DNA of 44,741 nt from contig JANRLD010000076.1 in assembly GCA_033762915.1 (NCBI GenBank), positions 1-44,741 on the forward strand, written 5' to 3'. Every line of letters begins with the position of its first letter. Position 1 is the stretch's first letter. Shown here one piece after another: positions 16,332-24,010 of the stretch. The position numbers and the translations under genes are program-made. The DNA is from Meiothermus sp. Its GTDB lineage: Bacteria; Deinococcota; Deinococci; Deinococcales; Thermaceae. The notes under the pieces were generated by a model. The model searched no databases. It was not told where the DNA came from and was given only the letters and a program-made list of their open reading frames with translations.

Positions 16332-16385
16332 TTTACAAGACAACATTTGAATGCTACTATTCTCGATGTAGCATTCAAATGCTAC
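16332..16385 (+). promoter_or_regulatory. Sigma70-type promoter of the tRNA array with overlapping palindromic operator
   Basis: TTTACA-17-TACTAT with TG extension; CATTTGAATGCTAC/GTAGCATTCAAATG inverted repeat; GTAGCATT-CA-AATGCTAC palindrome. Confidence 0.8.
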
Positions 16386-16605: not shown

Positions 16606-16680
16606 GGGCTGTTGGTGTCAACGGCAGCACGGCGCTCTCCAAAAGCGTTGGTTCTGGTTCAAATCCAGAGCAGCCCGCCA
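16606..16680 (+). tRNA. tRNA-Trp(CCA)
   Basis: Cloverleaf; loop CTCCAAA; CCA end. Confidence 0.92.
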
Positions 16681-16768
16681 AAAGCGCCACCTGCTGGGGT
16701 GGAAATGCTATCAATCGCAAAGTGGTCGGGGCTATGCCCTAGAGCTACGCCCCAACCCCTGTGCGATT
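16681..16768 (+). ncRNA. Repeated structured spacer RNA, copy 1
   Basis: Homologous to 16942-17016 with compensatory stem changes. Confidence 0.65.
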
Positions 16769-16769
16769 C

Positions 16770-16846
16770 CGTGGAGTAGCTCAGCTAGGAAGAGCCCTGG
16801 TTCGGGATACCAGAGGTCAGAGGTTCAAATCCTCTCTCCGCGACCA
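16770..16846 (+). tRNA. tRNA-Pro(GGG), C33
   Basis: CTGGT-TCGGGAT-ACCAG; C1-G72, A73; CGG in an alternative register. Confidence 0.82.
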
Positions 16847-16849
16847 TTT

Positions 16850-16941
16850 GGGTACGAGGTTGACTATCGGTTGGTCACGCCTCTGTGTAAAAGAGGAGCC
16901 CTAAAAAGCCCCTGTAGGTTCAATTCCTACCGTACCCACCA
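16850..16941 (+). tRNA. tRNA-Tyr(GTA)
   Basis: Loop GTGTAAA; long variable region; CCA. Confidence 0.85.
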
Positions 16942-17016
16942 AAAGCGCCAGCCCCTAAAGCTGGAGATGCTATCAACCGCAACGCGGCCCGGCTGGTCCG
17001 GTCACCCCTGCGCGGT
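16942..17016 (+). ncRNA. Repeated structured spacer RNA, copy 2
   Basis: Homologous to 16681-16768. Confidence 0.65.
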
Positions 17017-17019
17017 AAC

Positions 17020-17093
17020 GCAGAACTGGTGTAGTGGCAACACGCGACCATCCCAAGGTCGGGTTGCAGGTTCGATTCCTGCGTTCTGCTCCA
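17020..17093 (+). tRNA. tRNA-Gly(CCC)
   Basis: Loop ATCCCAA; U73; CCA. Confidence 0.9.
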
Positions 17094-17095
17094 TC

Positions 17096-17170
17096 GCGGA
17101 AATAGCTCAGAGGAAGAGCACTTCGTTGCCAACGAAGAGGCCGGGATTTCAAGACTCCCTTTCCGCACCA
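17096..17170 (+). tRNA. tRNA-Gly(GCC)
   Basis: Loop TTGCCAA; irregular T arm; A73. Confidence 0.85.
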
Positions 17171-17171
17171 T

Positions 17172-17246
17172 GCTTCGGTAGCTCAGAGGTAGAGCACCTG
17201 TCTGAAGAACAGGGGGTCGGTAGCTCAAAACTGCCCCGAAGCGCCA
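17172..17246 (+). tRNA. tRNA-Phe(GAA)
   Basis: Loop CTGAAGA; T loop CTCAAAA. Confidence 0.85.
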
Positions 17247-17249
17247 AGA

Positions 17250-17325
17250 GGGCTCCGTAGCTCAACGGCAGAGCGCCCCGTTTGCACCGGGGAGGCTGGG
17301 GGTTCAAATCCCCTCGAGTCCACCA
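17250..17325 (+). tRNA. tRNA-Ala(TGC)
   Basis: Loop TTTGCAC; G3:U70; bulged acceptor stem. Confidence 0.88.
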
Positions 17326-17367
17326 GCACAACCTGTAGGGACGCGGTACCCTGCTTCGCCGCGAAAT

Positions 17368-17442
17368 GGCTCCATAGTGTAGAGGATTGCACGCCACGTT
17401 GTCCGCGTGAGGGCGGGGGTTCGATTCCCCCTGGGGTCGCCA
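17368..17442 (+). tRNA. tRNA-Asp(GTC)
   Basis: Loop TTGTCCG; G73. Confidence 0.9.
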
Positions 17443-17445
17443 TGA

Positions 17446-17520
17446 TGGGAAGTCGTCTAAAGGCAAAGACGTCTGACTCTGACTCAGAAAATGTTGGTTC
17501 AATTCCAGCCTTCCTAGCCA
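17446..17520 (+). tRNA. tRNA-Gln(CTG)
   Basis: Loop CTCTGAC; U1-A72. Confidence 0.92.
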
Positions 17521-17568
17521 AAACGAAAACGAGAATGCCGCCGCACCGGGCGGCATGTTTTCGAGTTC

Positions 17569-17643
17569 GGTGCCATCGTCCAGCGGGCAGGACGTCACGT
17601 TCTCAGCGTGAAGACAGGGGTTCAAATCCCCTTGGCATCTCCA
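17569..17643 (+). tRNA. tRNA-Glu(CTC)
   Basis: Loop TTCTCAG; CCA. Confidence 0.9.
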
Positions 17644-17752
17644 GAAGGGCTCGAGGGACGCCTTGCTCGAAATGGTGAGGGCGAGCCCTTGCCGGAATCG
17701 AGGGTTTGTGCTAAAACTGTAAGGCTGATTTGAGCCTTATAGGCTCCCGAAC

Positions 17753-17827
17753 GGCCCCATCGTCTAGTGGTTAGGACGCCGCCCTCTCACGGCGGTAACA
17801 GGGGTTCAAATCCCCTTGGGGTCACCA
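17753..17827 (+). tRNA. tRNA-Glu(CTC), canonical housekeeping-like
   Basis: GGCCCCATCGTCTAGTGGTTAGGAC...; loop CTCTCAC. Confidence 0.95.
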
Positions 17828-17889
17828 GCGCACAATCCAGACGGTCTACCTGCCTCGCCCAAAGCGGGGCGGTTGACTTGTGTACGGCG

Positions 17890-17944
17890 TGGGGGCAAAC
17901 AGCCGATCAGACGGCTAAAGGTTCAAACCCTGCGTTCCCTGCCA
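17890..17944 (+). ncRNA. D-armless tRNA-like mini RNA
   Basis: GGGGGC/GTTCCC stem; AGCCG/CGGCT hairpin; AGG-TTCAAAC-CCT T arm; GCCA end. Confidence 0.55.
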
Positions 17945-17946
17945 TT

Positions 17947-18033
17947 GGAAGTGACGCCGAATTGGCTAAGGCACCCGTCTTGAAAACGGACAGTCCTCGA
18001 GACCTGTGGGTTCAATTCCCTCCACTTCCGCCA
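17947..18033 (+). tRNA. tRNA-Ser(TGA)
   Basis: Loop CTTGAAA; long variable arm; G73. Confidence 0.9.
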
Positions 18034-18101
18034 ACCGAACCTAAACACCAGCCACCCTTCCTCGCCAGGTCGAGGGAGGCCGGGAGGGTGAGGGGATGTC
18101 T

Positions 18102-18176
18102 GGGGTCGTAGCTCAATTGGCAGAGCGCTGCTGTGGCATGGCAGAGAAAGGGGTTCGACTCCCCTCGATTCCACCA
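18102..18176 (+). tRNA. tRNA-Ala(GGC)
   Basis: Loop GTGGCAT; G3:U70. Confidence 0.9.
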
Positions 18177-18178
18177 GT

Positions 18179-18253
18179 GAGGGTATCGCCTAACGGATAG
18201 GGCACCAGGCTTCGAACCTGGCCGTCGGGGTTCAAGTCCCTGTACCTTCGCCA
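18179..18253 (+). tRNA. tRNA-Arg(TCG)
   Basis: Loop CTTCGAA. Confidence 0.9.
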
Positions 18254-18280
18254 AACCGGTGCGCTGTCTGCACCAACCAC

Positions 18281-18357
18281 GCTCCCCTCGCCTAAAGGAG
18301 AGGGCAACGGTCTTCTAAACCGCCTATGTGCAGGTTCAATTCCTGCGGGGAGCACCA
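18281..18357 (+). tRNA. tRNA-Arg(TCT)
   Basis: Loop CTTCTAA. Confidence 0.9.
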
Positions 18358-18360
18358 CAT

Positions 18361-18437
18361 TGATCGGTAGCTTAACTCGGTAGAGCGCTCGATTGTTAAT
18401 CGAGTCTGTGCAGGTTCGATGCCTGCCCGATCAGCCA
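18361..18437 (+). tRNA. tRNA-Asn(GTT)
   Basis: Loop TTGTTAA; G73. Confidence 0.9.
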
Positions 18438-18440
18438 CGT

Positions 18441-18516
18441 TCCGAAGTAGCTCAAGAAGTAGAGCGCCTAGCTGTTACCTAGGACTGTGCAGGAGCGAAG
18501 CCTGCCTTCGGAGCCA
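18441..18516 (+). tRNA. tRNA-Asn(GTT), atypical T loop
   Basis: Loop CTGTTAC; T loop AGCGAAG; perfect stems. Confidence 0.82.
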
Positions 18517-18517
18517 T

Positions 18518-18593
18518 AGCGGATAACTGCCCCGGTGGGTAGGCAAGGCCCATAACCTTGACGCGGTGGGTTCGATTCCCACATCTGCAACCA
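18518..18593 (+). tRNA. tRNA-Met(CAT), initiator-like
   Basis: Loop CCCATAA; A1/A72 mismatch; atypical D arm. Confidence 0.75.
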
Positions 18594-18596
18594 AAT

Positions 18597-18673
18597 GCCC
18601 TTGTAGCTCAACTGGCCGAAGCGCCTCTCTTACAAAGAGGAGTATGGAGGTTCGAATCCTCTCCGGGGCACCA
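18597..18673 (+). tRNA. tRNA-Val(TAC)
   Basis: Loop CTTACAA. Confidence 0.88.
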
Positions 18674-18727
18674 AAGGGCTTCGCCCCTGTAAAGCGGCGT
18701 TGCCGAGGGCCATCCGGCCCAGCAAAC

Positions 18728-18801
18728 GCGAGATTGATGTAACGACAGCATGGCTGCCTTCCAAGCAGTCTGTGGGGGTTTGAGTCCTCCATCTCGCTCC
18801 A
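18728..18801 (+). tRNA. tRNA-Gly(TCC)
   Basis: Loop CTTCCAA; U73. Confidence 0.88.
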
Positions 18802-18803
18802 TT

Positions 18804-18879
18804 GTCGGTGTAGCTCAGTGAACAGAGCGCTGGCCTGCGAAGCCAGAGGTCGGTGGTTTGAGTCCACCCATTGACGCCA
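18804..18879 (+). tRNA. tRNA-Arg(GCG)
   Basis: CTGGC-CTGCGAA-GCCAG. Confidence 0.88.
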
Positions 18880-18880
18880 T

Positions 18881-18958
18881 CGGACAGTAGCTCAGCCGGT
18901 CCAGAGCATCCCTCTCATAAGGGGAAGTGCGTTGGTTCGAACCCAACCTGTCCGACCA
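18881..18958 (+). tRNA. tRNA(CAT): elongator Met or Ile2
   Basis: Loop CTCATAA; paired C1-G72. Confidence 0.85.
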
Positions 18959-18963
18959 TTTTC

Positions 18964-19037
18964 GACGCGATGACCGAGTGTCTAGGTGACTGGTTGCAAC
19001 CCAGTTGAGGGCGGTTAGATTCCGCCTCGCGTCTCCA
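18964..19037 (+). tRNA. tRNA-Cys(GCA)
   Basis: Loop TTGCAAC; U73. Confidence 0.88.
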
Positions 19038-19041
19038 CAAT

Positions 19042-19119
19042 CTTGCCTTGGCGCAACGGGTTCAGCGCATCCGTCTGATACGCGGAAGGTTCCTGGTTCG
19101 AGTCCAGGAGGCAAGACCA
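19042..19119 (+). tRNA. tRNA-Ile(GAT)
   Basis: Loop CTGATAC. Confidence 0.9.
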
Positions 19120-19124
19120 CTTTC

Positions 19125-19200
19125 GCTGATGTAGCTCGGTCGGCAGAGCACCCGCTTGGTAAGTGGGAGGCCGTGAGTTCGATCCTCACCATCAGCTCCA
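19125..19200 (+). tRNA. tRNA-Thr(GGT)
   Basis: Loop TTGGTAA. Confidence 0.92.
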
Positions 19201-19203
19201 CAT

Positions 19204-19279
19204 GGGTTTGGTCGTCTAATGGCTAGGACACTCGCTTGTGACGCGAGAGAAGGTGGGTCGGAACCACCCCTTACCCCCA
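19204..19279 (+). tRNA. tRNA-His(GTG), degenerate acceptor stem and T loop
   Basis: Loop TTGTGAC; G-1:C73; two T-T mismatches. Confidence 0.78.
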
Positions 19280-19311
19280 GAAAAGATTTCGCCGCTCGAG
19301 GCGAAATCCGT

Positions 19312-19386
19312 GCCGTGGTAGCTCAATGGTTGAGCGCCTGTTTTGTAAACAGGTGGCTGCCGGTTCAAGTCCGGCTCACGGCTCCA
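19312..19386 (+). tRNA. tRNA-Thr(TGT)
   Basis: Loop TTTGTAA. Confidence 0.92.
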
Positions 19387-19480
19387 GCACAAAGGAGGTG
19401 ATCCGACGGCAAGAACTCTTTAGCAGTACCACCCGAAAAAGGGTTCGGAGAGCGCAACGGTTTCGCCGAACCCCACCCCT

Positions 19481-19558
19481 GCTCCTGTGACGGGAACCGG
19501 CATACCTCTGCGCGCGAGAAGTGCAGGCTTGGGGGTTCAACTCCCCCTGGGAGCACCA
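19481..19558 (+). tRNA. tRNA-Leu(GAG), short variable loop
   Basis: Loop GCGAGAA; Leu-type D arm; A73. Confidence 0.78.
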
Positions 19559-19584
19559 AAATACTTGCCCTCGTGGCAGGCCGT

Positions 19585-19659
19585 GAAAGTGTGGCGCAAC
19601 CTGGCAGACGCGCACGGCTCAGAACCGTGTTGTTGAGGGTTCAAATCCCTCCACTTTCA
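19585..19659 (+). tRNA. tRNA-Leu(CAG), short variable loop, CCA not encoded
   Basis: Loop CTCAGAA; followed by CTA. Confidence 0.85.
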
Positions 19660-19664
19660 CTATC

Positions 19665-19741
19665 CAGAGGTTGGACTCGAGGCGAGTCTCCGCGCTTGGA
19701 ACGCGGACATCGGGCAGGTTCGACTCCTGCACCTCTGACCA
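19665..19741 (+). tRNA. tRNA-Pro(TGG)
   Basis: Loop CTTGGAA; C1-G72, A73. Confidence 0.85.
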
Positions 19742-19742
19742 T

Positions 19743-19820
19743 GATTCTGTGACGGGAACTGGCAGACCTGCTCCGCTTAGAACGGAGTGCTTGGGAGTTC
19801 GAATCTCCCCAGAATCACCA
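19743..19820 (+). tRNA. tRNA-Leu(TAG), short variable loop
   Basis: Loop CTTAGAA. Confidence 0.88.
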
Positions 19821-19838
19821 GAAGGTCTTTGCGCCTAT

Positions 19839-19918
19839 CGGGGGTGAAATGAGAACAGTCATTGGTTCTCTAACAGCGAAGACTTGGTTACTTGGTTCAA
19901 CTCCAAAACCCCCGACCA
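19839..19918 (+). ncRNA. tRNA-like RNA with D/anticodon region replaced by the ACAGC module
   Basis: CGGGGGT/ACCCCCG-ACCA; T arm; GAGAAC/GTTCTC-TA-ACAGCGA. Confidence 0.75.
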
Positions 19919-19923
19919 ACTTC

Positions 19924-20001
19924 GCTCTTGTGACGGGAACTGGCATACCTTGCTGTCTCAAAAACAGCAGCTTGGAGGTTCAAATCCTCCCAGGAGCACC
20001 A
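19924..20001 (+). tRNA. tRNA-Leu(CAA), short variable loop
   Basis: Loop CTCAAAA. Confidence 0.88.
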
Positions 20002-20004
20002 CTC

Positions 20005-20081
20005 CTCGAGGTGGCGTAACTGGCAAACGCAGCGGTCTTAAGAACCGTCCCATGCCGGTTCGAATCCCGCCCTCGAGACCA
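20005..20081 (+). tRNA. tRNA-Leu(TAA), short variable loop
   Basis: Loop CTTAAGA. Confidence 0.85.
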
Positions 20082-20090
20082 GCAGTACAC

Positions 20091-20178
20091 GGAAGGGTGG
20101 GCGAGCGGCTTATGCCACCTCACTGCTAAGGAGGAGAGCCTTTGGGCTCCGCAGGTTCAAATCCTGTCCCTTCCGCCA
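20091..20178 (+). tRNA. tRNA-Ser(GCT)
   Basis: Loop CTGCTAA; long variable arm; G73. Confidence 0.9.
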
Positions 20179-20210
20179 CAAGCCGCCTCGAGCTGAGGCG
20201 GCAGTTTTAT

Positions 20211-20328
20211 GGAAGCGTAGCTCAGAAGGTAGAGCAGGTAAAAAACGAGAGTTGGCCAATTCTCTGACAGCAAACCCATTCGCCTTGAACGCGCCGGGTC
20301 GTGGGTTCGAGTCCTACCGCTTCCACCA
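20211..20328 (+). ncRNA. 118-nt tRNA-like RNA with the ACAGCAA module inserted in the anticodon arm
   Basis: Canonical acceptor, D and T arms plus CCA; insert GAGAGTT/AATTCTC-TG-ACAGCAA. Confidence 0.8.
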
Positions 20329-20360
20329 ACACTCACTCGAGCCTAACCGCTCGAGTCCAT

Positions 20361-20436
20361 GCTGACTTCGCCTAACGGCCAAGGCCCCCGCCTCTTAAGC
20401 GGGTTGATGAAGGTTCAAATCCTTCAGTCAGCACCA
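20361..20436 (+). tRNA. tRNA-Lys(CTT)
   Basis: Loop CTCTTAA. Confidence 0.9.
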
Positions 20437-20437
20437 T

Positions 20438-20514
20438 GTCCTTGTAGCTCAACGGCCAGAGCAGCGGTCTTTTAAACCGTATTGGTGTAGGTTCGAGTCC
20501 TACCGAGGACACCA
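20438..20514 (+). tRNA. tRNA-Lys(TTT)
   Basis: Loop CTTTTAA. Confidence 0.92.
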
Positions 20515-20628
20515 CAAATACCCCTCCGGCCTTCGGCCACCTCCCCTGATCCTGATGTTTGCAGTGAATCAAGCCTCGAAGTTCGCCTCGAGGAATGCAC
20601 GCCCAAGGAGAGGCAAGGAGAGGCACAT

Positions 20629-20702
20629 GCTTTCGTAACTCAAGGTAGAGTGGCTGGTTCTTACCCAGTTCGGTGCAGGTTCAAGTCCTGCCGAAAGCAC
20701 CA
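20629..20702 (+). tRNA. tRNA-Lys(CTT), second copy
   Basis: GCTGG-TTCTTAC-CCAGT. Confidence 0.85.
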
Positions 20703-20820
20703 AAACTCACTGACATGGGCCGAGTAGCCTGTGTTTGCGGGCTACTCGAGCCCCTCACCCCAACCGCTCTCCCAAAGGGAGAGAGGACTTAATCGGGCTC
20801 GAGTCAGGAGCGTGATCCCC

Positions 20821-21390
20821 ATGAAGGAGGCAGAGAGACAGCAGCACACTATAGCTGCGAACGCGCAGCACGGCTCGCGCCGCGAGTCCATCAACATTGA
20901 CACCCCCAGAGTCCTAGTGCTCAACGCCGGGTTCCAGCCCCTGGGGATCGCCAGCATTCGCCGCGTGGTGGGCCTGGTGATGAGCGGGCTTGCCGAGGTG
21001 GTGGAGGAGTCGGGCGATTTCCTCCGCACCCCCACCAGCCAGTACCCCGTCCCCAAGATCGTCCGCGTCAAGAAGATGATCCGGCCCCGCTTGCGCGGAC
21101 TGCGTCTGAGCCGCCGCAACGTCTTCCGGCGCGACGCCCACACCTGTGCCTACTGCGGCAAGCGCACCTCAGACCTGACCCTCGACCATGTAATTCCGCG
21201 CTCGAGGGGCGGCAGCAACACCTGGGACAACCTGGTCTCGGCTTGCCAGAGCTGTAACCACCGCAAGGCCGACCGCACCCCCGAGGAGGCGGGCATGAAG
21301 CTCCTCCACAAGCCCGCCAAGCCCAGCCAGAGCGTGTGGCTGGACATCCTCGAGGTGCCCCGCGAGTGGAGGGTGTACTTCGGGGCGTAA
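20821..21390 (+). CDS. HNH endonuclease (McrA/HNH_5-like), start uncertain
   Basis: VLVLNAGFQPL; CAYCG...TLDHVIPRSRGG...NLVSACQSCNHRK. Confidence 0.92.
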   Translation: MKEAERQQHTIAANAQHGSRRESINIDTPRVLVLNAGFQPLGIASIRRVVGLVMSGLAEVVEESGDFLRTPTSQYPVPKIVRVKKMIRPRLRGLRLSRRNVFRRDAHTCAYCGKRTSDLTLDHVIPRSRGGSNTWDNLVSACQSCNHRKADRTPEEAGMKLLHKPAKPSQSVWLDILEVPREWRVYFGA

Positions 21391-21473
21391 AGGGCGGGTG
21401 TAGGGCGTAAAGTGCAAGGAATCTTAAGGGCCTTTGCATACCCTTTTGCTCTTCGCCCTATACCCGCGCTCCT

Positions 21474-21521
21474 AGGCTGCGCTAAACCGGCTTCTTCCCC
21501 AAAGAGAGCCGTCGCGGCCTG
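21474..21521 (+). repeat. Degenerate AGGCYGC/GCGGCCTG hairpin lacking ACAGCAA
   Basis: Same closing stem as the hairpins at 21629 and 21708. Confidence 0.5.
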
Positions 21522-21628
21522 TAAAGATCGTCATCAAAGCCATCGATCTCGAGGCGAGGGCGAACTCGAGGCTTCCCGAAACCCCACATAACCCACCGAA
21601 CCCAAGCCCATCGGCTACCCTGTTACCA

Positions 21629-21681
21629 AGGCCGCCTACAGCAACCAGACTCCTCCACTTGGGGTTACACTGTGCGGCCTG
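21629..21681 (+). ncRNA. ACAGCAA-module hairpin A
   Basis: AGGCCGC-CT-ACAGCAA...GCGGCCTG. Confidence 0.7.
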
Positions 21682-21707
21682 TTCTTTTGGGTGCCGAGCC
21701 GAAACAG

Positions 21708-21762
21708 AGGCCGCGCACAGCAAAAACCCCCATTCCCTTTTCAGGAAAGAGCATGCGGCCTG
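21708..21762 (+). ncRNA. ACAGCAA-module hairpin B (abuts the RBS)
   Basis: AGGCCGC-GC-ACAGCAA...GCGGCCTG, then AAGGAG. Confidence 0.7.
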
Positions 21763-21775
21763 AAGGAGCACAGCT

Positions 21776-23290
21776 ATGAACTTTCTCGAGCTTATGAACC
21801 AGGCCCAGGCTGCTGCCACCTGGAACGGCGCGCTCAGTCACGCCACCAGTGGCAGCGAGCTGGTAGACCTCTACTACCGAGCCGTGCGCGTGCCCGGCTC
21901 GGGCAAGGGTTTCCAGCACGGCGAGTATGTGCCCAAGCAGTTCCTTAGCTACCTCGCCAAGTCCTGGATGGTGAGCCCCGAGGCCGCACTACGCCTGCTG
22001 TTCCACTTGCGCGATGTGCGCGAGGGCAAGGGCGAGCGGGCCATGTTCTATGCGGGCATGGTCTGGCTGGCCAAGACCGACTTGGGGCTGTTCCTCCGCG
22101 CTCTAGCCCTGGTGCCCGAGTACGGCGCATGGAAGGACGTGCTCGAGATCGCCGTCCTCCTCGGCGACGAGCGCGTGACCGCCGAAGCGGTGCGGCTGTT
22201 TGTTCGGGCCCTTCAGGACGGCGACGCCCTGGCCCACCAAGCCGGTCGCCCCGGCGACGCGGCTCTAGCAGCCAAGTGGGCCCCCAGCGAGGGCAAGCGC
22301 CTCGACCGCGCCCTGGGTTTCGTCGAGCGCGTGTGCAAGGCCGCCGGCTGGAGCCGCAAGACCTACCGCGATACCCTGGTGGCGCTGCGGCGGGTGGTCG
22401 AGACCCCCATGAGTGCACGCGAGTGGGAGCGCATCGAGTACGCCCACGTGCCCGCCAAGGCCATGTTGACCTACAACAAGGCTTTCGAGCGCCACGCCCC
22501 CGAGGCTTTCAAGGGCTACCTCGAGGCCGTCCGGAAGGGCGAGGCCAGGATCAACGCCGCTGCCCTGATGGCCCACGAGATCGTGGCGAGGTGGTTCTCC
22601 GGAGCCCTGGGCGAGGCCGAGGAGTTGCAGTGGCGGGCGCTGGTCGAGCAGTATGGCGCCAGCCTCGAGAACACCCTCTGCGTGGTGGACGTTTCTGGCT
22701 CGATGCAGTCGGGCTGGGGCCGGGTCAAGCCCATCCACGTGGCGCTGGGCCTGGGTCTGCTGGCGGCCCACGCGCAGAAGGGCGTGTTCGCGGGCGCCTT
22801 CGTCACCTTCAGCGCCCAGCCCACCCTGCAGCGCGTCAACCTGCGGGCCAGGCTGGCCACCCAGCTCCAGAGCATGAACACCGCCGCCTGGGACATGAAC
22901 ACCGACATCCAGGCCGTGTTCCAGCTGATCCTGGACACCGCCCGGGCCAACCGGCTGCCCCAGCGCCAGTTGCCCCGGCGCGTCCTGATCTTCAGCGACA
23001 TGCAGTTCGACCAGGCCACCGGCGGCAACCAGCTCACCAACTTCCAGAAGGCCCAGCGGGACTTCGAGCGGGCGGGCTATGTGCTGCCCGAGCTGATCTT
23101 CTGGAACGTCAACGGCGCGACCGCCGACTTCCCCGTCCAGATGCACCAGAGCGGCGCGGTGCTGGTGTCGGGCTGGAACCAGACCCTCTTCAAGGCCCTC
23201 TCGCAGAACCGCATCGTCGACCCCCTGCAGATGGTGCTCGAGATCCTCGGCAAGCCCCGCTACGACGCGGTGGGCAAGCTGGTCGCGTGA
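21776..23290 (+). CDS. DUF2828 family protein (TROVE/Ro60-like helical domain + vWA)
   Basis: NGALSHATSG, LRDVREGKGER, YGAWKD, AAKWAPSE, MIDAS DVSGSM, FSDMQFD, PELIFWN; family recognised from motifs, not by database search. Confidence 0.88.
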   Translation: MNFLELMNQAQAAATWNGALSHATSGSELVDLYYRAVRVPGSGKGFQHGEYVPKQFLSYLAKSWMVSPEAALRLLFHLRDVREGKGERAMFYAGMVWLAKTDLGLFLRALALVPEYGAWKDVLEIAVLLGDERVTAEAVRLFVRALQDGDALAHQAGRPGDAALAAKWAPSEGKRLDRALGFVERVCKAAGWSRKTYRDTLVALRRVVETPMSAREWERIEYAHVPAKAMLTYNKAFERHAPEAFKGYLEAVRKGEARINAAALMAHEIVARWFSGALGEAEELQWRALVEQYGASLENTLCVVDVSGSMQSGWGRVKPIHVALGLGLLAAHAQKGVFAGAFVTFSAQPTLQRVNLRARLATQLQSMNTAAWDMNTDIQAVFQLILDTARANRLPQRQLPRRVLIFSDMQFDQATGGNQLTNFQKAQRDFERAGYVLPELIFWNVNGATADFPVQMHQSGAVLVSGWNQTLFKALSQNRIVDPLQMVLEILGKPRYDAVGKLVA

Positions 23291-23325
23291 CCCGAGTGGG
23301 GTCCATCGATTCCCCACAGTAACCC

Positions 23326-23418
23326 CAAGCCCCGTACAGCAAACCTCTAAACTCGGGTTAGGCCGAAAGGCTGCCGGTTCAAATCCAGCGAGATGGCTCG
23401 CGCCATGAAAGGGGCTTG
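23326..23418 (+). ncRNA. ACAGCAA-module RNA with permuted tRNA-like arms (Y-RNA-like)
   Basis: CAAGCCCC-GT-ACAGCAA...GGTTCAAATCC...GGGGCTTG. Confidence 0.75.
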
Positions 23419-23469
23419 TGATGGGGCCTTGCTCGCGTAGGGAGATTCATGAGCTACAAATTGCCCTCG

Positions 23470-23501
23470 AGGCAGGACGCGAACTGCGTCCTGCCTTTTT
23501 T
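23470..23501 (+). terminator. Intrinsic terminator closing the tRNA/HNH/DUF2828 unit
   Basis: AGGCAGGACGC-GAACT-GCGTCCTGCCT-TTTTT. Confidence 0.85.
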
Positions 23502-24010
23502 CATGGCTTGACCGGGGCGGCTTCGAACTCGATGGGGGTGTGTTCGGAGAAGCCGCCGGTGGTGAGCATCTCGAACTTGATGCTGTCCGGGCTGGCGGTG
23601 CCCTTGTAGCTGTGCTTTAGCTCGCGGGTCTCGCTCGCCCCGCCCAGCGACTCCTGCGTCTTGACCACGAAGCGCAGGGTGTCGCCCTCCATCCGGCCCT
23701 CGAGGATGGCCCGCCGCACGCCCAGGAACGAGGCGGTGCCGCTCAGCTCCTTGCCCTCGAGTTTGAAATTGAACTGCTCGGTGCGGCTCACCCCCCAGTC
23801 GTAGCGCACCTCGGCCCGCCATACACCCGAAACGTCCATCGTGGGTGCGGTCCTGGCCTCCTCGCTGACCCCGAAGAACTTGTTCCACAAGTCCATGATC
23901 GAGTCCAGGTTGCCCGCTGCGCCTCCCGCCGTCGCCAGCACCGCGATGGCCGCCACCCCGTAGCGGCGGTACTTCATCCACGGCTTGGCCTTGCTCGCCT
24001 TATTGCTCAT
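23501..24010 (-). CDS. Hypothetical exported or membrane-anchored protein
   Basis: N-terminal hydrophobic segment; beta-rich domain (DVSGVW). Confidence 0.7.
   Translation of the reverse strand: MSNKASKAKPWMKYRRYGVAAIAVLATAGGAAGNLDSIMDLWNKFFGVSEEARTAPTMDVSGVWRAEVRYDWGVSRTEQFNFKLEGKELSGTASFLGVRRAILEGRMEGDTLRFVVKTQESLGGASETRELKHSYKGTASPDSIKFEMLTTGGFSEHTPIEFEAAPVKP

Follow-up and report, generated by a model that had tools for sequence, protein, structure and literature searches.

Introduction

The described systems that stand closest to the locus analysed here are Ro60/Rsr with its Y RNAs (YrlA and YrlB), the Class I RNAs of dictyostelid amoebae, and a Ro60-like protein of Escherichia phage Bas63. 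Within 4 kb of canonical Ro60 genes, and on their strand, one to three Y RNAs are encoded (Chen et al. 2014, PMC4201824), and the Ro60 protein of Thermus phage phiLo binds Yrl1 and Yrl2, whose genes both lie upstream of its own (PMC12135203). In Bas63 (Felixounavirus), the gene of gp130 stands directly ahead of the phage tRNA genes; gp130 was described as structurally Ro60-like and is reported to show a counter-defence phenotype against the ppl system, and the authors guessed that some annotated Bas63 tRNAs may be Y RNAs (PhageMaP preprint, PMC11482910).

Class I RNAs are 42-65 nt long, and the helix formed by their 5' and 3' ends keeps its structure, not its sequence (Kjellin et al. 2021, PMC7919456). 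The termini are given there as conserved (5' AAG and 3' CUGU) and the interior as variable, with a conserved unpaired motif of about 11 nt beside the 5' strand. The genes lie scattered and have individual DUSE promoters; the sole direct binder named there for the amoeba is the RRM protein Rnp1A, and Class I RNAs are declared there to be unique to Dictyostelia (PMC7919456). Our literature search, with subscription papers outside its reach, found no paper that links Class I RNAs to a Ro60-like protein, and none that describes the RNAs reported below beside DUF2828 genes.

Here we analysed a 44,741-nt stretch of Meiothermus sp. DNA (referred to as the window), in which a DUF2828 gene is flanked on both sides by short hairpin units. 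A previous sequence-only reading had noticed three of the hairpins, and had taken them either for processed small RNAs, constant in the handle and variable in the loop, or for sites of translational feedback by the protein.

Results

Organization of the locus

The following features were identified, R2 being a covariance model constructed from 90 elements of other loci and zero window sequences.

16332..16360, + strand: promoter-like site TTTACA-17-TACTAT with TG, upstream of the tRNA array (consensus scan)
16606..20702, + strand: tRNA array, 34 genes for all 20 amino acids (ARAGORN; 31 Rfam tRNA matches)
20731..21390, + strand: HNH endonuclease gene (Pfam HNH_5, 2.1e-17; PHROG HNH families)
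21391..21470, + strand: 80-nt imperfect hairpin, also an inverted repeat (-41.3 kcal/mol, z -5.1)
21474..21521, + strand: H1, closing stem common to H2 and H3, without ACAGCAA
21627..21682, + strand: H2, candidate Class-I-like or Y-like small RNA unit (R2 and fold)
21706..21763, + strand: H3, second candidate unit of the same family as H2 (R2)
21763..21768, + strand: AAGGAG ribosome-binding site of the DUF2828 gene, 7 nt upstream of the ATG at 21776 (read from the sequence)
21776..23290, + strand: gene for a DUF2828 and DUF7788/vWA protein of 504 aa (Pfam, PHROG, predicted fold)
23325..23419, + strand: E4, longer family member downstream of the DUF2828 gene (R2, script scan, fold)
23469..23503, + strand: intrinsic-terminator-like hairpin of 13 pairs, then a T run (sequence scan)

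The tRNA array and the DUF2828 gene share the plus strand, and the HNH gene separates the array from the RNA elements. The promoter-like site at 16332..16360 is a candidate for the point where the whole transcription unit might start; it is a match to the consensus alone, and the count of sites in the scan was not above that of shuffles. The terminator-like hairpin at 23469..23503 is the probable end of the unit. By a simple consensus scan, no promoter-like site was found in the spacer ahead of the DUF2828 gene, and separate transcription is therefore unsupported. The 80-nt hairpin, absent from the sequence-only reading, lies immediately past the stop codon of the HNH gene, and none of 200 shuffles was equally stable; it is possibly a processing or stability element. 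At curated thresholds Rfam matched only tRNAs, and at E<=10 it gave in the spacer just chance microRNA-type matches to this 80-nt hairpin.

Predicted Ro60-like fold of the DUF2828 protein

At E<=0.01, the window protein was matched in Pfam by DUF7788, DUF2828 and VWA_2 only; TROVE (PF05731) did not match, and a PDB sequence search with the protein gave no match. PHROG placed it in phrog_850, 'RNA-binding protein' (1.4e-110). The AlphaFold model (pLDDT 90.2) was then compared with the PDB by Foldseek. The best 12 matches were Ro60 or TROVE structures (9kop, E 5.5e-8; 1yvp_A, TM 0.62), those to Ro60 entries being full-length, with TM 0.44-0.62 and probability 1.00. As judged from this model, the predicted fold of the DUF2828 protein is that of Ro60, a ring of HEAT repeats together with a vWA domain. 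Five residues, D305, S307, S309, T376 and D408, were invariant among 55 homologues, and we take them to be a MIDAS metal site.

In phages, 695 records matched the DUF2828 family, among them Felix O1-like phages, cluster L mycobacterial phages and phages of Listeria, Staphylococcus and Campylobacter. Proteins 70-94% identical to that of the window were detected (P0001-P0004), while the relatives in the metagenome scan were at most 35% identical and those in the single-protein scan of viral contigs at most 37%. The homologues include the Felixounavirus DUF2828 proteins, with 33% identity, and a DUF2828 protein of the dictyostelid Cavenderia fasciculata, with 36% identity over the full length (E 3e-87). 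Other eukaryotes with a DUF2828 protein were oomycetes, chytrids, Naegleria and a red alga. UniRef labels some of the homologues 'TROVE domain-containing'.

Hairpins flanking the DUF2828 gene

With the pattern AGGCYGC-N(30-60)-GCGGCCTG, three matches were found in the 44.7-kb window (21474-21521, 21629-21681 and 21708-21762), against a mean of 0.06 in shuffles, none of 100 of which reached three. The three same-stem hairpins pointed out previously are thus real. As had also been read, two of them, H2 and H3, carry ACAGCAA, placed two bases past the 5' strand, and when folded singly each was closed by the shared stem and contained an inner hairpin with a 7-nt loop. The fold of H2 gave -22.8 kcal/mol (z -2.9), and that of H3 -14.4 kcal/mol (z -1.0), no better than shuffles. 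H2 consists, in order, of AAG, the 7-bp stem, CU, ACAGCAA, the inner hairpin, the 3' strand and a terminal CUGU. In H3 the 3' strand extends to 21761; after it come G at 21762, AAGGAG at 21763-21768 and ATG at 21776, in agreement with the earlier remark that the last hairpin abuts the ribosome-binding site.

H1 folded to -21.4 kcal/mol (z -3.1), with one U-G pair in the closing stem and an internal loop on the 5' side. It lacks the ACAGCAA motif and was matched at E<=10 neither by R2 nor by R1, the other covariance model used. H1 is no detectable member of the RNA family, though it shares the stem.

The fourth unit, E4, had been missed by the sequence-only reading; it was also detected by a script scan for elements. 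Its first part is composed of a 7-bp stem, GU, ACAGCAA, a GNRA-capped hairpin and a T-arm-like GGUUCAAAUCC hairpin with one mismatch, followed by one further hairpin, the 3' strand and then GU; GCCGAAAG in E4 forms an inner-hairpin loop. The fold of E4 (z -1.2) was no better than shuffles. The sequence following the stem is CUACAGCAA in H2, GCACAGCAA in H3 and GUACAGCAA in E4.

The elements are retained in metagenome contigs about 96% identical to the window, which are too alike for a covariation test. In one such contig, six of the differences listed fall within 21620-21830; three of these lie within 21627-21763, and among the differences listed none touches the closing stems or the motif.

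Detection by covariance models

When the 44.7-kb window was searched on both strands with R2, H2 was the best match (26.3 bits, E 2.8e-4), followed by H3 (25.9 bits, E 3.5e-4) and E4 (19.2 bits, E 0.02), the next match after E4 being at 11.0 bits (E 2.8); the E-values of both R1 and R2 come from a shortened calibration. Over the whole 5.38-Mb assembly, R1 at E<=1 found H2 and H3 only. The possibility of a genome-wide REP element, raised in the sequence-only reading as the case against its own proposal, does not hold: 26 other matches to the bare stem are scattered over the genome with unrelated interiors, and the family model found none beyond H2 and H3.

Architecture of the RNA family

Members of the family, with a median length of 58 nt, are closed by a covarying stem of 7 bp and carry an unpaired motif of the UUACAGCAA type; the interior varies, and the G that trails the stem is nearly invariant. 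Among 85 distinct sequences, 99.2% of the cells of the closing helix were paired, against 32-40% with the partner slid, and compensatory changes were observed in all seven helix pairs; these pairing figures refer to an alignment fitted to the covariance model. In the R2 family the motif, with the consensus UUACAGCAA, stands directly past the 5' strand. Each position of CAGCAA was conserved in 80-85 of the 85 sequences, and the G past the helix in 83.

The sequence AGGCCGC of the stem changes freely between loci by covariation; what stays constant is the motif of the UUACAGCAA type and the trailing G. A handle of the kind proposed for processed RNAs would lie in these two parts and not in the AGGCCGC sequence. 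The comparison of loci favours the wider proposal of small RNAs with such a handle for H2 and H3, whose architecture recurs on the gene strand at the DUF2828 loci of phages and bacteria far removed from each other; H1 is without the motif. The description of the inner loops as anticodon-like was not borne out, since neither ARAGORN nor Rfam called any tRNA-like RNA in the spacer and the inner hairpins across the family had a mean z of -0.16, no better than shuffled sequence; an anticodon-like loop was rejected as a family feature. Forms with a full T-arm plus D-arm are present at other DUF2828 loci.

Linkage to DUF2828 genes

By script scan of 80 IMG/VR loci (545 kb), 142 matches were found on the gene strand, in 56 loci, against 24 on the other strand; controls with reversed motif gave 14 and 8, and 20 shuffles gave a mean of 15.4 and a maximum of 22. 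Of 137 flanking matches, 100 lay within 700 nt of the gene, a zone that makes up 25% of the flank bases.

The covariance model gave the same picture, its pooled matches lying on the gene strand in 146 of 146 cases. These comprised 90 of 90 matches in 92 metagenomic loci, 26 of 26 in 10 named phage loci, every one of which had a match at E<=0.01 (among them Felix O1, mycobacteriophage Lumos, and Listeria, Staphylococcus and Campylobacter phages), and 30 of 30 in 38 genome loci, 22 of which had a match; the genome scan for DUF2828 loci was run with a 10-sequence alignment. The complete genomes of five phages (548 kb) gave 16 matches at E<=0.01, every one of them within 2.8 kb of the DUF2828 gene. 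With default filters and with some contigs short, 38 of the 92 and 16 of the 38 loci gave no match, and the pairing of RNA with DUF2828 is therefore not universal as measured. At two TROVE-type phage loci with published YrlA RNAs the family model gave no hit, the best scores being 6.2 bits for CcrColossus and 11.9 bits, on the opposite strand, for Bxz1. These observations altogether show that an RNA family exists, that its helix covaries, and that it is strand-bound and tied to DUF2828 loci.

Discussion

Proposed role of the RNA units

We consider it likely that H2, H3 and E4 are units for small structured non-coding RNAs, members of a conserved family that travels with DUF2828 genes, and that these RNAs are Y-RNA-like partners of a Ro60-like ring protein. 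We infer their expression, processing and binding, and a function of the complex, along the following lines. The ends of each RNA would pair as the 7-bp helix, leaving the UUACAGCAA-type motif unpaired next to the 5' strand; then would come a variable module, which may be a small hairpin, a T-arm or, at other loci, a whole permuted tRNA-like domain, and the unit would be completed by an A-rich 3' segment and the conserved G past the helix. By analogy with the Y RNA stem for Ro60, helix, motif and G together could form the docking site for the DUF2828 ring, and the variable module might serve as a gate to the ring or as its tether to other factors. In the window, the RNAs would probably be trimmed from a long transcript shared with the 34 tRNAs and with the HNH and DUF2828 genes. 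H3, as long as it remains part of the mRNA, could also enable the DUF2828 protein to damp its own translation.

A purely cis-acting leader, in which H3, and perhaps also H2, is bound by the DUF2828 protein or another factor that represses translation, with no free RNA being made, appears unlikely to us. It agrees with the position of H3 one base short of AAGGAG, with five other loci (L035, L043, L059, L074 and L079) at which 11-26 nt separate the end of the nearest upstream element from the start of the protein match, and with the lack of a promoter-like site in the spacer. However, downstream elements outnumber upstream ones (79 against 58), some lie more than 1 kb from the DUF2828 gene within tRNA arrays, and E4 is placed past the stop codon, and a leader operator cannot account for any of these. 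Translational feedback, the other role put forward by the sequence-only reading, is thus not the general one of the family; it may apply to H3, since H3 abuts the ribosome-binding site, and the leader and small-RNA roles may coexist at the Meiothermus locus. Hardly credible is a REP-like or other DNA-level repeat unrelated to the gene, such as a protein-binding palindrome or a recombination site. The stem halves are indeed reverse complements, the 8-mer GCGGCCTG is enriched in the window (15 against 6.1 expected), and the gapped pattern has 29 genomic matches against 3 for a backwards control; yet clustering is seen at the DUF2828 locus only, the other 26 matches being those scattered ones with unrelated interiors, and the strand-boundness of all 146 covariance-model matches, the asymmetric motif and the covarying helix argue for an element that works at the RNA level.

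Two further explanations dispense with the DUF2828 protein, and both relate to tRNA. That the elements punctuate tRNA operons as RNase guides, transcript-end stabilizers or terminators, with no dedicated protein partner, would suit their location in or beside tRNA arrays (37 of the 80 loci contain tRNAs, and all 269 of these lie on the gene strand) and the T-rich run 3' of H2. We judge this quite improbable: a near-invariant unpaired motif of 6-7 nt and a post-helix G are unexpected for terminators or RNase hairpins, the elements track the DUF2828 gene in SEP9, ValKK3 and Fnu1 despite few or zero nearby tRNAs, and they are missing at the two TROVE-type loci. There is a similarly small chance that the units are tRNA-derived decoys or minihelices, in which a 7-bp acceptor-like stem and 7-nt loops divert tRNA-directed enzymes or anticodon nucleases independently of DUF2828. 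H2 and H3 have neither a T- or D-arm nor a tRNA score, and conservation resides in the motif and termini, not in the loops; 7 nt is the commonest size of the predicted inner loop (18 of 73 loops), as decoys would have it, but the inner hairpins are no stabler than shuffles and were absent from 12 of 82 sequences. The 7-bp closing stem itself and the longer members with T-arms or with T- and D-arms speak for such an origin, as does the Lumos element, which scored 39.3 bits (E 2.5e-7) with Rfam YrlA, below the threshold of 69 bits.

Comparison with Ro60 and Y RNAs

The partnership that we favour, of small RNAs with the DUF2828 ring, resembles Ro60 with its Y RNAs in several respects. H2, H3 and E4 adjoin the DUF2828 gene and share its strand, much as the strand of a Ro60 gene carries one to several small RNAs within a few kb; paired ends form a stem with a conserved motif near its 5' side; and at other DUF2828 loci the arrays combine short hairpins with permuted tRNA-like-domain forms, the T-arm-like hairpin of E4 being the only part of a tRNA-like domain among the window elements. 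Both systems are found in phages. The likeness of the protein lies in ring-plus-vWA by predicted fold only, the TROVE profile being unmatched. The RNAs differ in the motif, which is an unpaired UUACAGCAA-type sequence as opposed to GNCGAA or GGUCCGA in the stem of Y RNAs, and in size, the short DUF2828-linked forms having about 50-60 nt against 80-130 nt. Neither GNCGAA(N0-1)G nor GGUCCGA, which Y RNAs carry near the 5' end, was found in H2 or H3, and the GCCGAAAG of E4 stands in an inner-hairpin loop instead. Rfam YrlA (RF02553) and Y_RNA had zero matches in the window.

With respect to Bas63, the elements of Felixounavirus are unannotated and located between annotated tRNAs. The candidate partners are these elements, whereas the published guess concerned the annotated tRNAs; the unannotated RNAs would be what that study could merely guess at. 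The counter-defence phenotype belongs to Bas63 gp130, and nothing comparable is known for the Meiothermus locus. If the proposed partnership is correct, the orphan DUF2828 family gains a concrete and testable candidate RNA partner.

Comparison with Class I RNAs

In sequence and predicted structure, the DUF2828-linked RNA family matches the dictyostelid Class I RNAs in size, stem, motif and termini. The Class I consensus motif (Rfam RF01414), CUUACAGCAA, and the UUACAGCAA of the bacterial and phage family are alike and occupy the same position. The Class I end helix has its counterpart in the 7-bp helix of H2, H3 and E4, and the interior is variable in both. From stem to stem, H2 (52 nt) and H3 (54 nt) fit the range of 42-65 nt, and E4 (91 nt) is longer. 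As for the termini, AAG...CUGU of H2 and AAG...UUGU of E4 fit, and GAG...CUGA of H3 does so partially. When five whole phage genomes were searched with RF01414, ten matches were obtained at E<=1, eight of them coinciding exactly with elements that flank DUF2828 in Felix O1, Listeria AG20 and Staphylococcus SEP9. These AT-rich phage members scored 13-23 bits, under the gathering threshold of 41.5 bits, and similarly weak matches occurred in 7 of 14 control genomes; the GC-rich H2 and H3 were unmatched by RF01414 at E<=10.

The two families differ in gene arrangement and known binder. Class I genes are dispersed with their own promoters, the DUSE being a eukaryotic element, whereas the window units lie in an operon adjoining the protein gene. 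The binder in the amoeba is Rnp1A, with an RRM, and not the DUF2828 protein; reportedly, Avesson et al. described four Class I RNA-associated proteins in 2011.

The chances seem to us even that the DUF2828 protein and Class-I-type RNAs constitute an ancient ribonucleoprotein, sister to Ro60/Y RNA, which would be shared by phages from many phyla of bacteria, a small number of bacterial chromosomes, dictyostelids and perhaps other DUF2828-carrying eukaryotes. Its place in phages would be within tRNA arrays, for surveillance of tRNA and other RNA or for counter-defence, and the abundant Class I RNAs of amoebae would be to the amoebal DUF2828 protein what Y RNAs are to Ro60. The present findings challenge the published uniqueness of Class I RNAs to social amoebae, and these RNAs gain a candidate protein partner and a functional frame, namely Ro60-like RNA surveillance. 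Ro60-type rings appear to fall into two or more clades that differ in the RNA motif used for docking, and these offer a natural system for the evolution of RNA-protein specificity.

Organization of the DUF2828 locus

The DUF2828 gene lies in a compact unit composed of the following features.

Features of the compact unit (window coordinates, strand)
16332, +: promoter-like site, candidate start of the unit
16606-20702 (4.1 kb), +: 34 tRNA genes for all 20 amino acids, 5' of the HNH gene
20731-21390, +: HNH endonuclease gene, between the tRNA array and the hairpins
21391-21470, +: 80-nt imperfect, very stable hairpin (−41.3 kcal/mol, z −5.1), directly after the HNH stop codon
21474-21521, +: hairpin H1, HNH-DUF2828 spacer
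21629-21681, +: hairpin H2, HNH-DUF2828 spacer
21708-21762, +: hairpin H3, HNH-DUF2828 spacer
21776-23290, +: DUF2828 gene, 3' of H3
23327-23417, +: element E4, just past the DUF2828 stop codon, found by the script scan
23469-23503, +: strong terminator-like hairpin, probable 3' end of the unit

Around the locus lie genes for ABC transporters, an RpiR regulator and LptF/G, along with other housekeeping genes, and the window belongs to a bacterial chromosome rather than a phage. DUF2828 was found in only one of 364 genomes of the phylum, that of the window itself, and 695 phage records were matched at identities of 38% or less, commonly annotated there as 'Ro-like RNA binding protein'. The unit at 16.3-23.5 kb, including the tRNA array, HNH and DUF2828 genes, therefore resembles a phage-type module that has been acquired. 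The 34-tRNA array stands amid an ordinary chromosomal neighbourhood, with no integrase near the unit. The assembly measures 5.38 Mb against 2.4-3.9 Mb listed for the 25 further genomes in its genus, with a stated contamination of 0.5%.

Hairpins upstream of the DUF2828 gene

The sequence-only reading had described three hairpins sharing a closing stem in the DUF2828 leader, and this description was borne out: the gapped pattern of the 7-bp stem has three matches in the window, where 0.06 would be expected, ACAGCAA is present in H2 and H3 two bases past the 5' strand, and H3 ends one base 5' of AAGGAG, so that the last hairpin does abut the ribosome-binding site. When folded alone, H1 and H2 were more stable than shuffled sequences (z −3.1 and −2.9), and the stability of H3 was not above that of shuffles (z −1.0). 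H1 retains the shared stem and an internal loop on the 5' side without the ACAGCAA motif, and may be a degenerate copy or carry another role. The 80-nt hairpin at 21391-21470 is unrelated to the RNA family described below; in close relatives, a G to A change at 21400 converts a G-T pair of its arm into A-T.

The same reading had named a genome-wide REP element as the finding that would speak against a link to DUF2828. In the 5.38-Mb assembly this repeat explanation fails: the 26 further matches to the bare pattern are dispersed and have unrelated interiors, and a whole-element model run over the genome matched H2 and H3 only. The spacer is retained in contigs of about 96% identity from four runs. 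One such contig, spanning 21620-21830, showed six differences, three of them within 21627-21763 and none in stem or motif, a pattern in close relatives that is consistent with constraint and too little for proof.

A conserved RNA family at DUF2828 loci

The sequence-only reading had proposed a comparison upstream of homologues; when both flanks of distant DUF2828 homologues were inspected, the H2/H3 layout was seen in a Felixounavirus. Four elements lie between tRNA genes there, and in each the closing stem of 7 bp leads, after two or three bases, into (A/G)CAGCAA. Elements were scanned for by a script (perfect 7-bp stem with at most one G-U pair, 2-4-nt spacer, CAGCAA, complementary strand within 160 nt), which detected them next to the gene in mycobacteriophage Lumos as well as at several metagenomic loci, and revealed E4 in the window. 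Across 80 IMG/VR loci, the gene strand gave 142 matches in 56 loci versus 24 on the opposite strand; the reversed motif gave 14 and 8, and shuffles a mean of 15.4. The matches lay downstream (79), upstream (58) or inside (5) of the gene, and 100 of the 137 flanking ones fell within 700 nt of it, though this zone makes up 25% of flank bases. In Felix O1 (L108 4756-5592) and Bacillus phage Skywalker (L112 193-2898), unannotated family members occupy gaps between annotated tRNA genes, and the Felix O1 array also contains HNH genes, like that of the window.

A first covariance model, R1, was trained on 38 short elements, H2 and H3 among them, and gave 90 matches at E≤0.01 in 54 of 92 loci, all on the gene strand; E-values of the models are rough because calibration was shortened. 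The second model, R2, was built from these 90 matches with the window sequence excluded. Its best three matches in the window were H2 (26.3 bits), H3 (25.9) and E4 (19.2), the next scoring 11.0; H1 was not detected there. All ten named phage loci (Felix O1, Staphylococcus SEP9, Listeria AG20, Campylobacter NCTC12673, Bacillus Skywalker, Enterococcus 113, Vibrio ValKK3, Sinorhizobium phiM12, Fusobacterium Fnu1 and Stenotrophomonas DLP_6) had a match at E≤0.01, and 26/26 matches at E≤1 were on the gene strand. The same held for 30/30 matches at 22 of 38 loci of bacterial genome assemblies. In five complete phage genomes (548 kb), 16/16 matches at E≤0.01 lay no more than 2.8 kb from the DUF2828 gene. 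All seven pairs of the helix covary, with 99.2% of cells paired versus 32-40% with a slid partner, in an alignment fitted to the model. Each position of CAGCAA, preceded by A or U, is kept in 80-85 of 85 distinct sequences, and G directly follows the helix in 83 of them. These elements constitute an RNA family that is conserved, strand-bound and covarying, and that is linked to DUF2828 genes.

Predicted Ro60 fold of the DUF2828 protein

Pfam assigned DUF2828 and DUF7788/vWA to the window protein, with no match to TROVE. An AlphaFold model from 55 homologues reached a pLDDT of 90.2. In Foldseek against PDB, every one of the best 12 matches was a Ro60 structure, with alignments spanning the whole protein (E 5.5e-8 to 7.4e-6, TM≤0.62), from phage phiLo (9kop), Xenopus (1yvp, 2i91), Deinococcus (2nvo) and human (9nen). 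By this modelling the protein is shown to have a predicted Ro60 fold. Close relatives on metagenome contigs lack 33 or 52 bases within the gene at 22200-22253 (about residues 142-159), a stretch taking in a low-confidence loop of the model (pLDDT <50 at 154-157).

Possible role of the DUF2828/RNA system

Y RNAs are bound by Ro60 at their terminal stem and either gate the protein or tether it to partners such as PNPase (PMC4201824), and Ro60 of phage phiLo binds two RNAs encoded 5' of its gene (PMC12135203). In a similar arrangement, the helix, motif and following G may dock onto the ring of the DUF2828 protein, and specificity would come from the variable module of the RNA. The window RNAs would be excised from a tRNA-HNH-DUF2828 transcript, and H3 may additionally mediate translational feedback.

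tRNA genes were found at 37 of 80 loci, 269 on the gene strand and none opposite, and this tight association suggests a putative role in tRNA or RNA surveillance. The DUF2828 gene of Listeria phage AG20 is followed 1.2 kb downstream by an RtcB-type 'tRNA splicing ligase' (L110 5737-7044), and that of Lumos has a Band-7-like lipoprotein upstream (L023 738-1670), neighbours that are both suggestive of RNA repair. The Felixounavirus homologue gp130 of Bas63 is described as countering the ppl defence system (PMC11482910).

Comparison with Class I RNAs and Y RNAs

When typical AT-rich members were scanned against Rfam at relaxed settings, they weakly matched the Dictyostelium Class I RNA, RF01414. 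The layout of its consensus agrees with that of R2: a 6-bp terminal helix is followed by CUUACAGCAA, an A/U-rich interior that varies, an A-rich 3' part, the 3' strand and then UG. Class I RNAs are described as RNAs of 42-65 nt that have a short end-joining helix conserved in structure and not in sequence, an 11-nt motif adjoining the 5' strand and conserved termini AAG and CUGU, and were judged unique to Dictyostelia (Kjellin et al. 2021, PMC7919456). Likewise H2 starts with AAG, has CUACAGCAA past the stem and ends with CUGU. In five whole phage genomes, RF01414 gave ten matches at E≤1, eight of which were exactly DUF2828-flanking elements (Felix O1, AG20, SEP9); all were sub-threshold (13-23 bits), and weak matches also occurred in 7 of 14 control genomes. 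The GC-rich window copies gave no RF01414 match. The dictyostelid Cavenderia fasciculata has a DUF2828 and DUF7788 protein with 36% identity to that of the window over 497 columns (E 3e-87), as close as phage homologues are. Our literature search found no paper tying Class I RNAs to a Ro60-like protein or to phages. To judge from paper titles, plants also have DUF2828 proteins, and no Class I RNAs are reported for the plant genomes that Kjellin et al. searched (PMC7919456); co-occurrence in eukaryotes is therefore not established.

Among the longer family members, some have a T-arm and others combine T-arm, stem-loop and D-arm in a permuted order like that of the Y RNA YrlA; the Lumos element scored 39.3 bits against Rfam YrlA, under the 69-bit threshold, and E4 has a T-arm-like hairpin alone. 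The inner hairpin of E4 (23360-23371) has a loop, GCCGAAAG, that fits GNCGAA(N0-1)G of canonical YrlA RNAs and may simply be a GNRA tetraloop. In the phages CcrColossus and Bxz1, which have true TROVE-type Ro60 and published YrlA RNAs (PMC4201824, Table S2), R2 found no match at the Ro60 loci, and GNCGAA is the RNA motif described as paired with TROVE (PMC4201824). The type of RNA motif therefore follows the protein clade, TROVE with GNCGAA and DUF2828 with UUACAGCAA.
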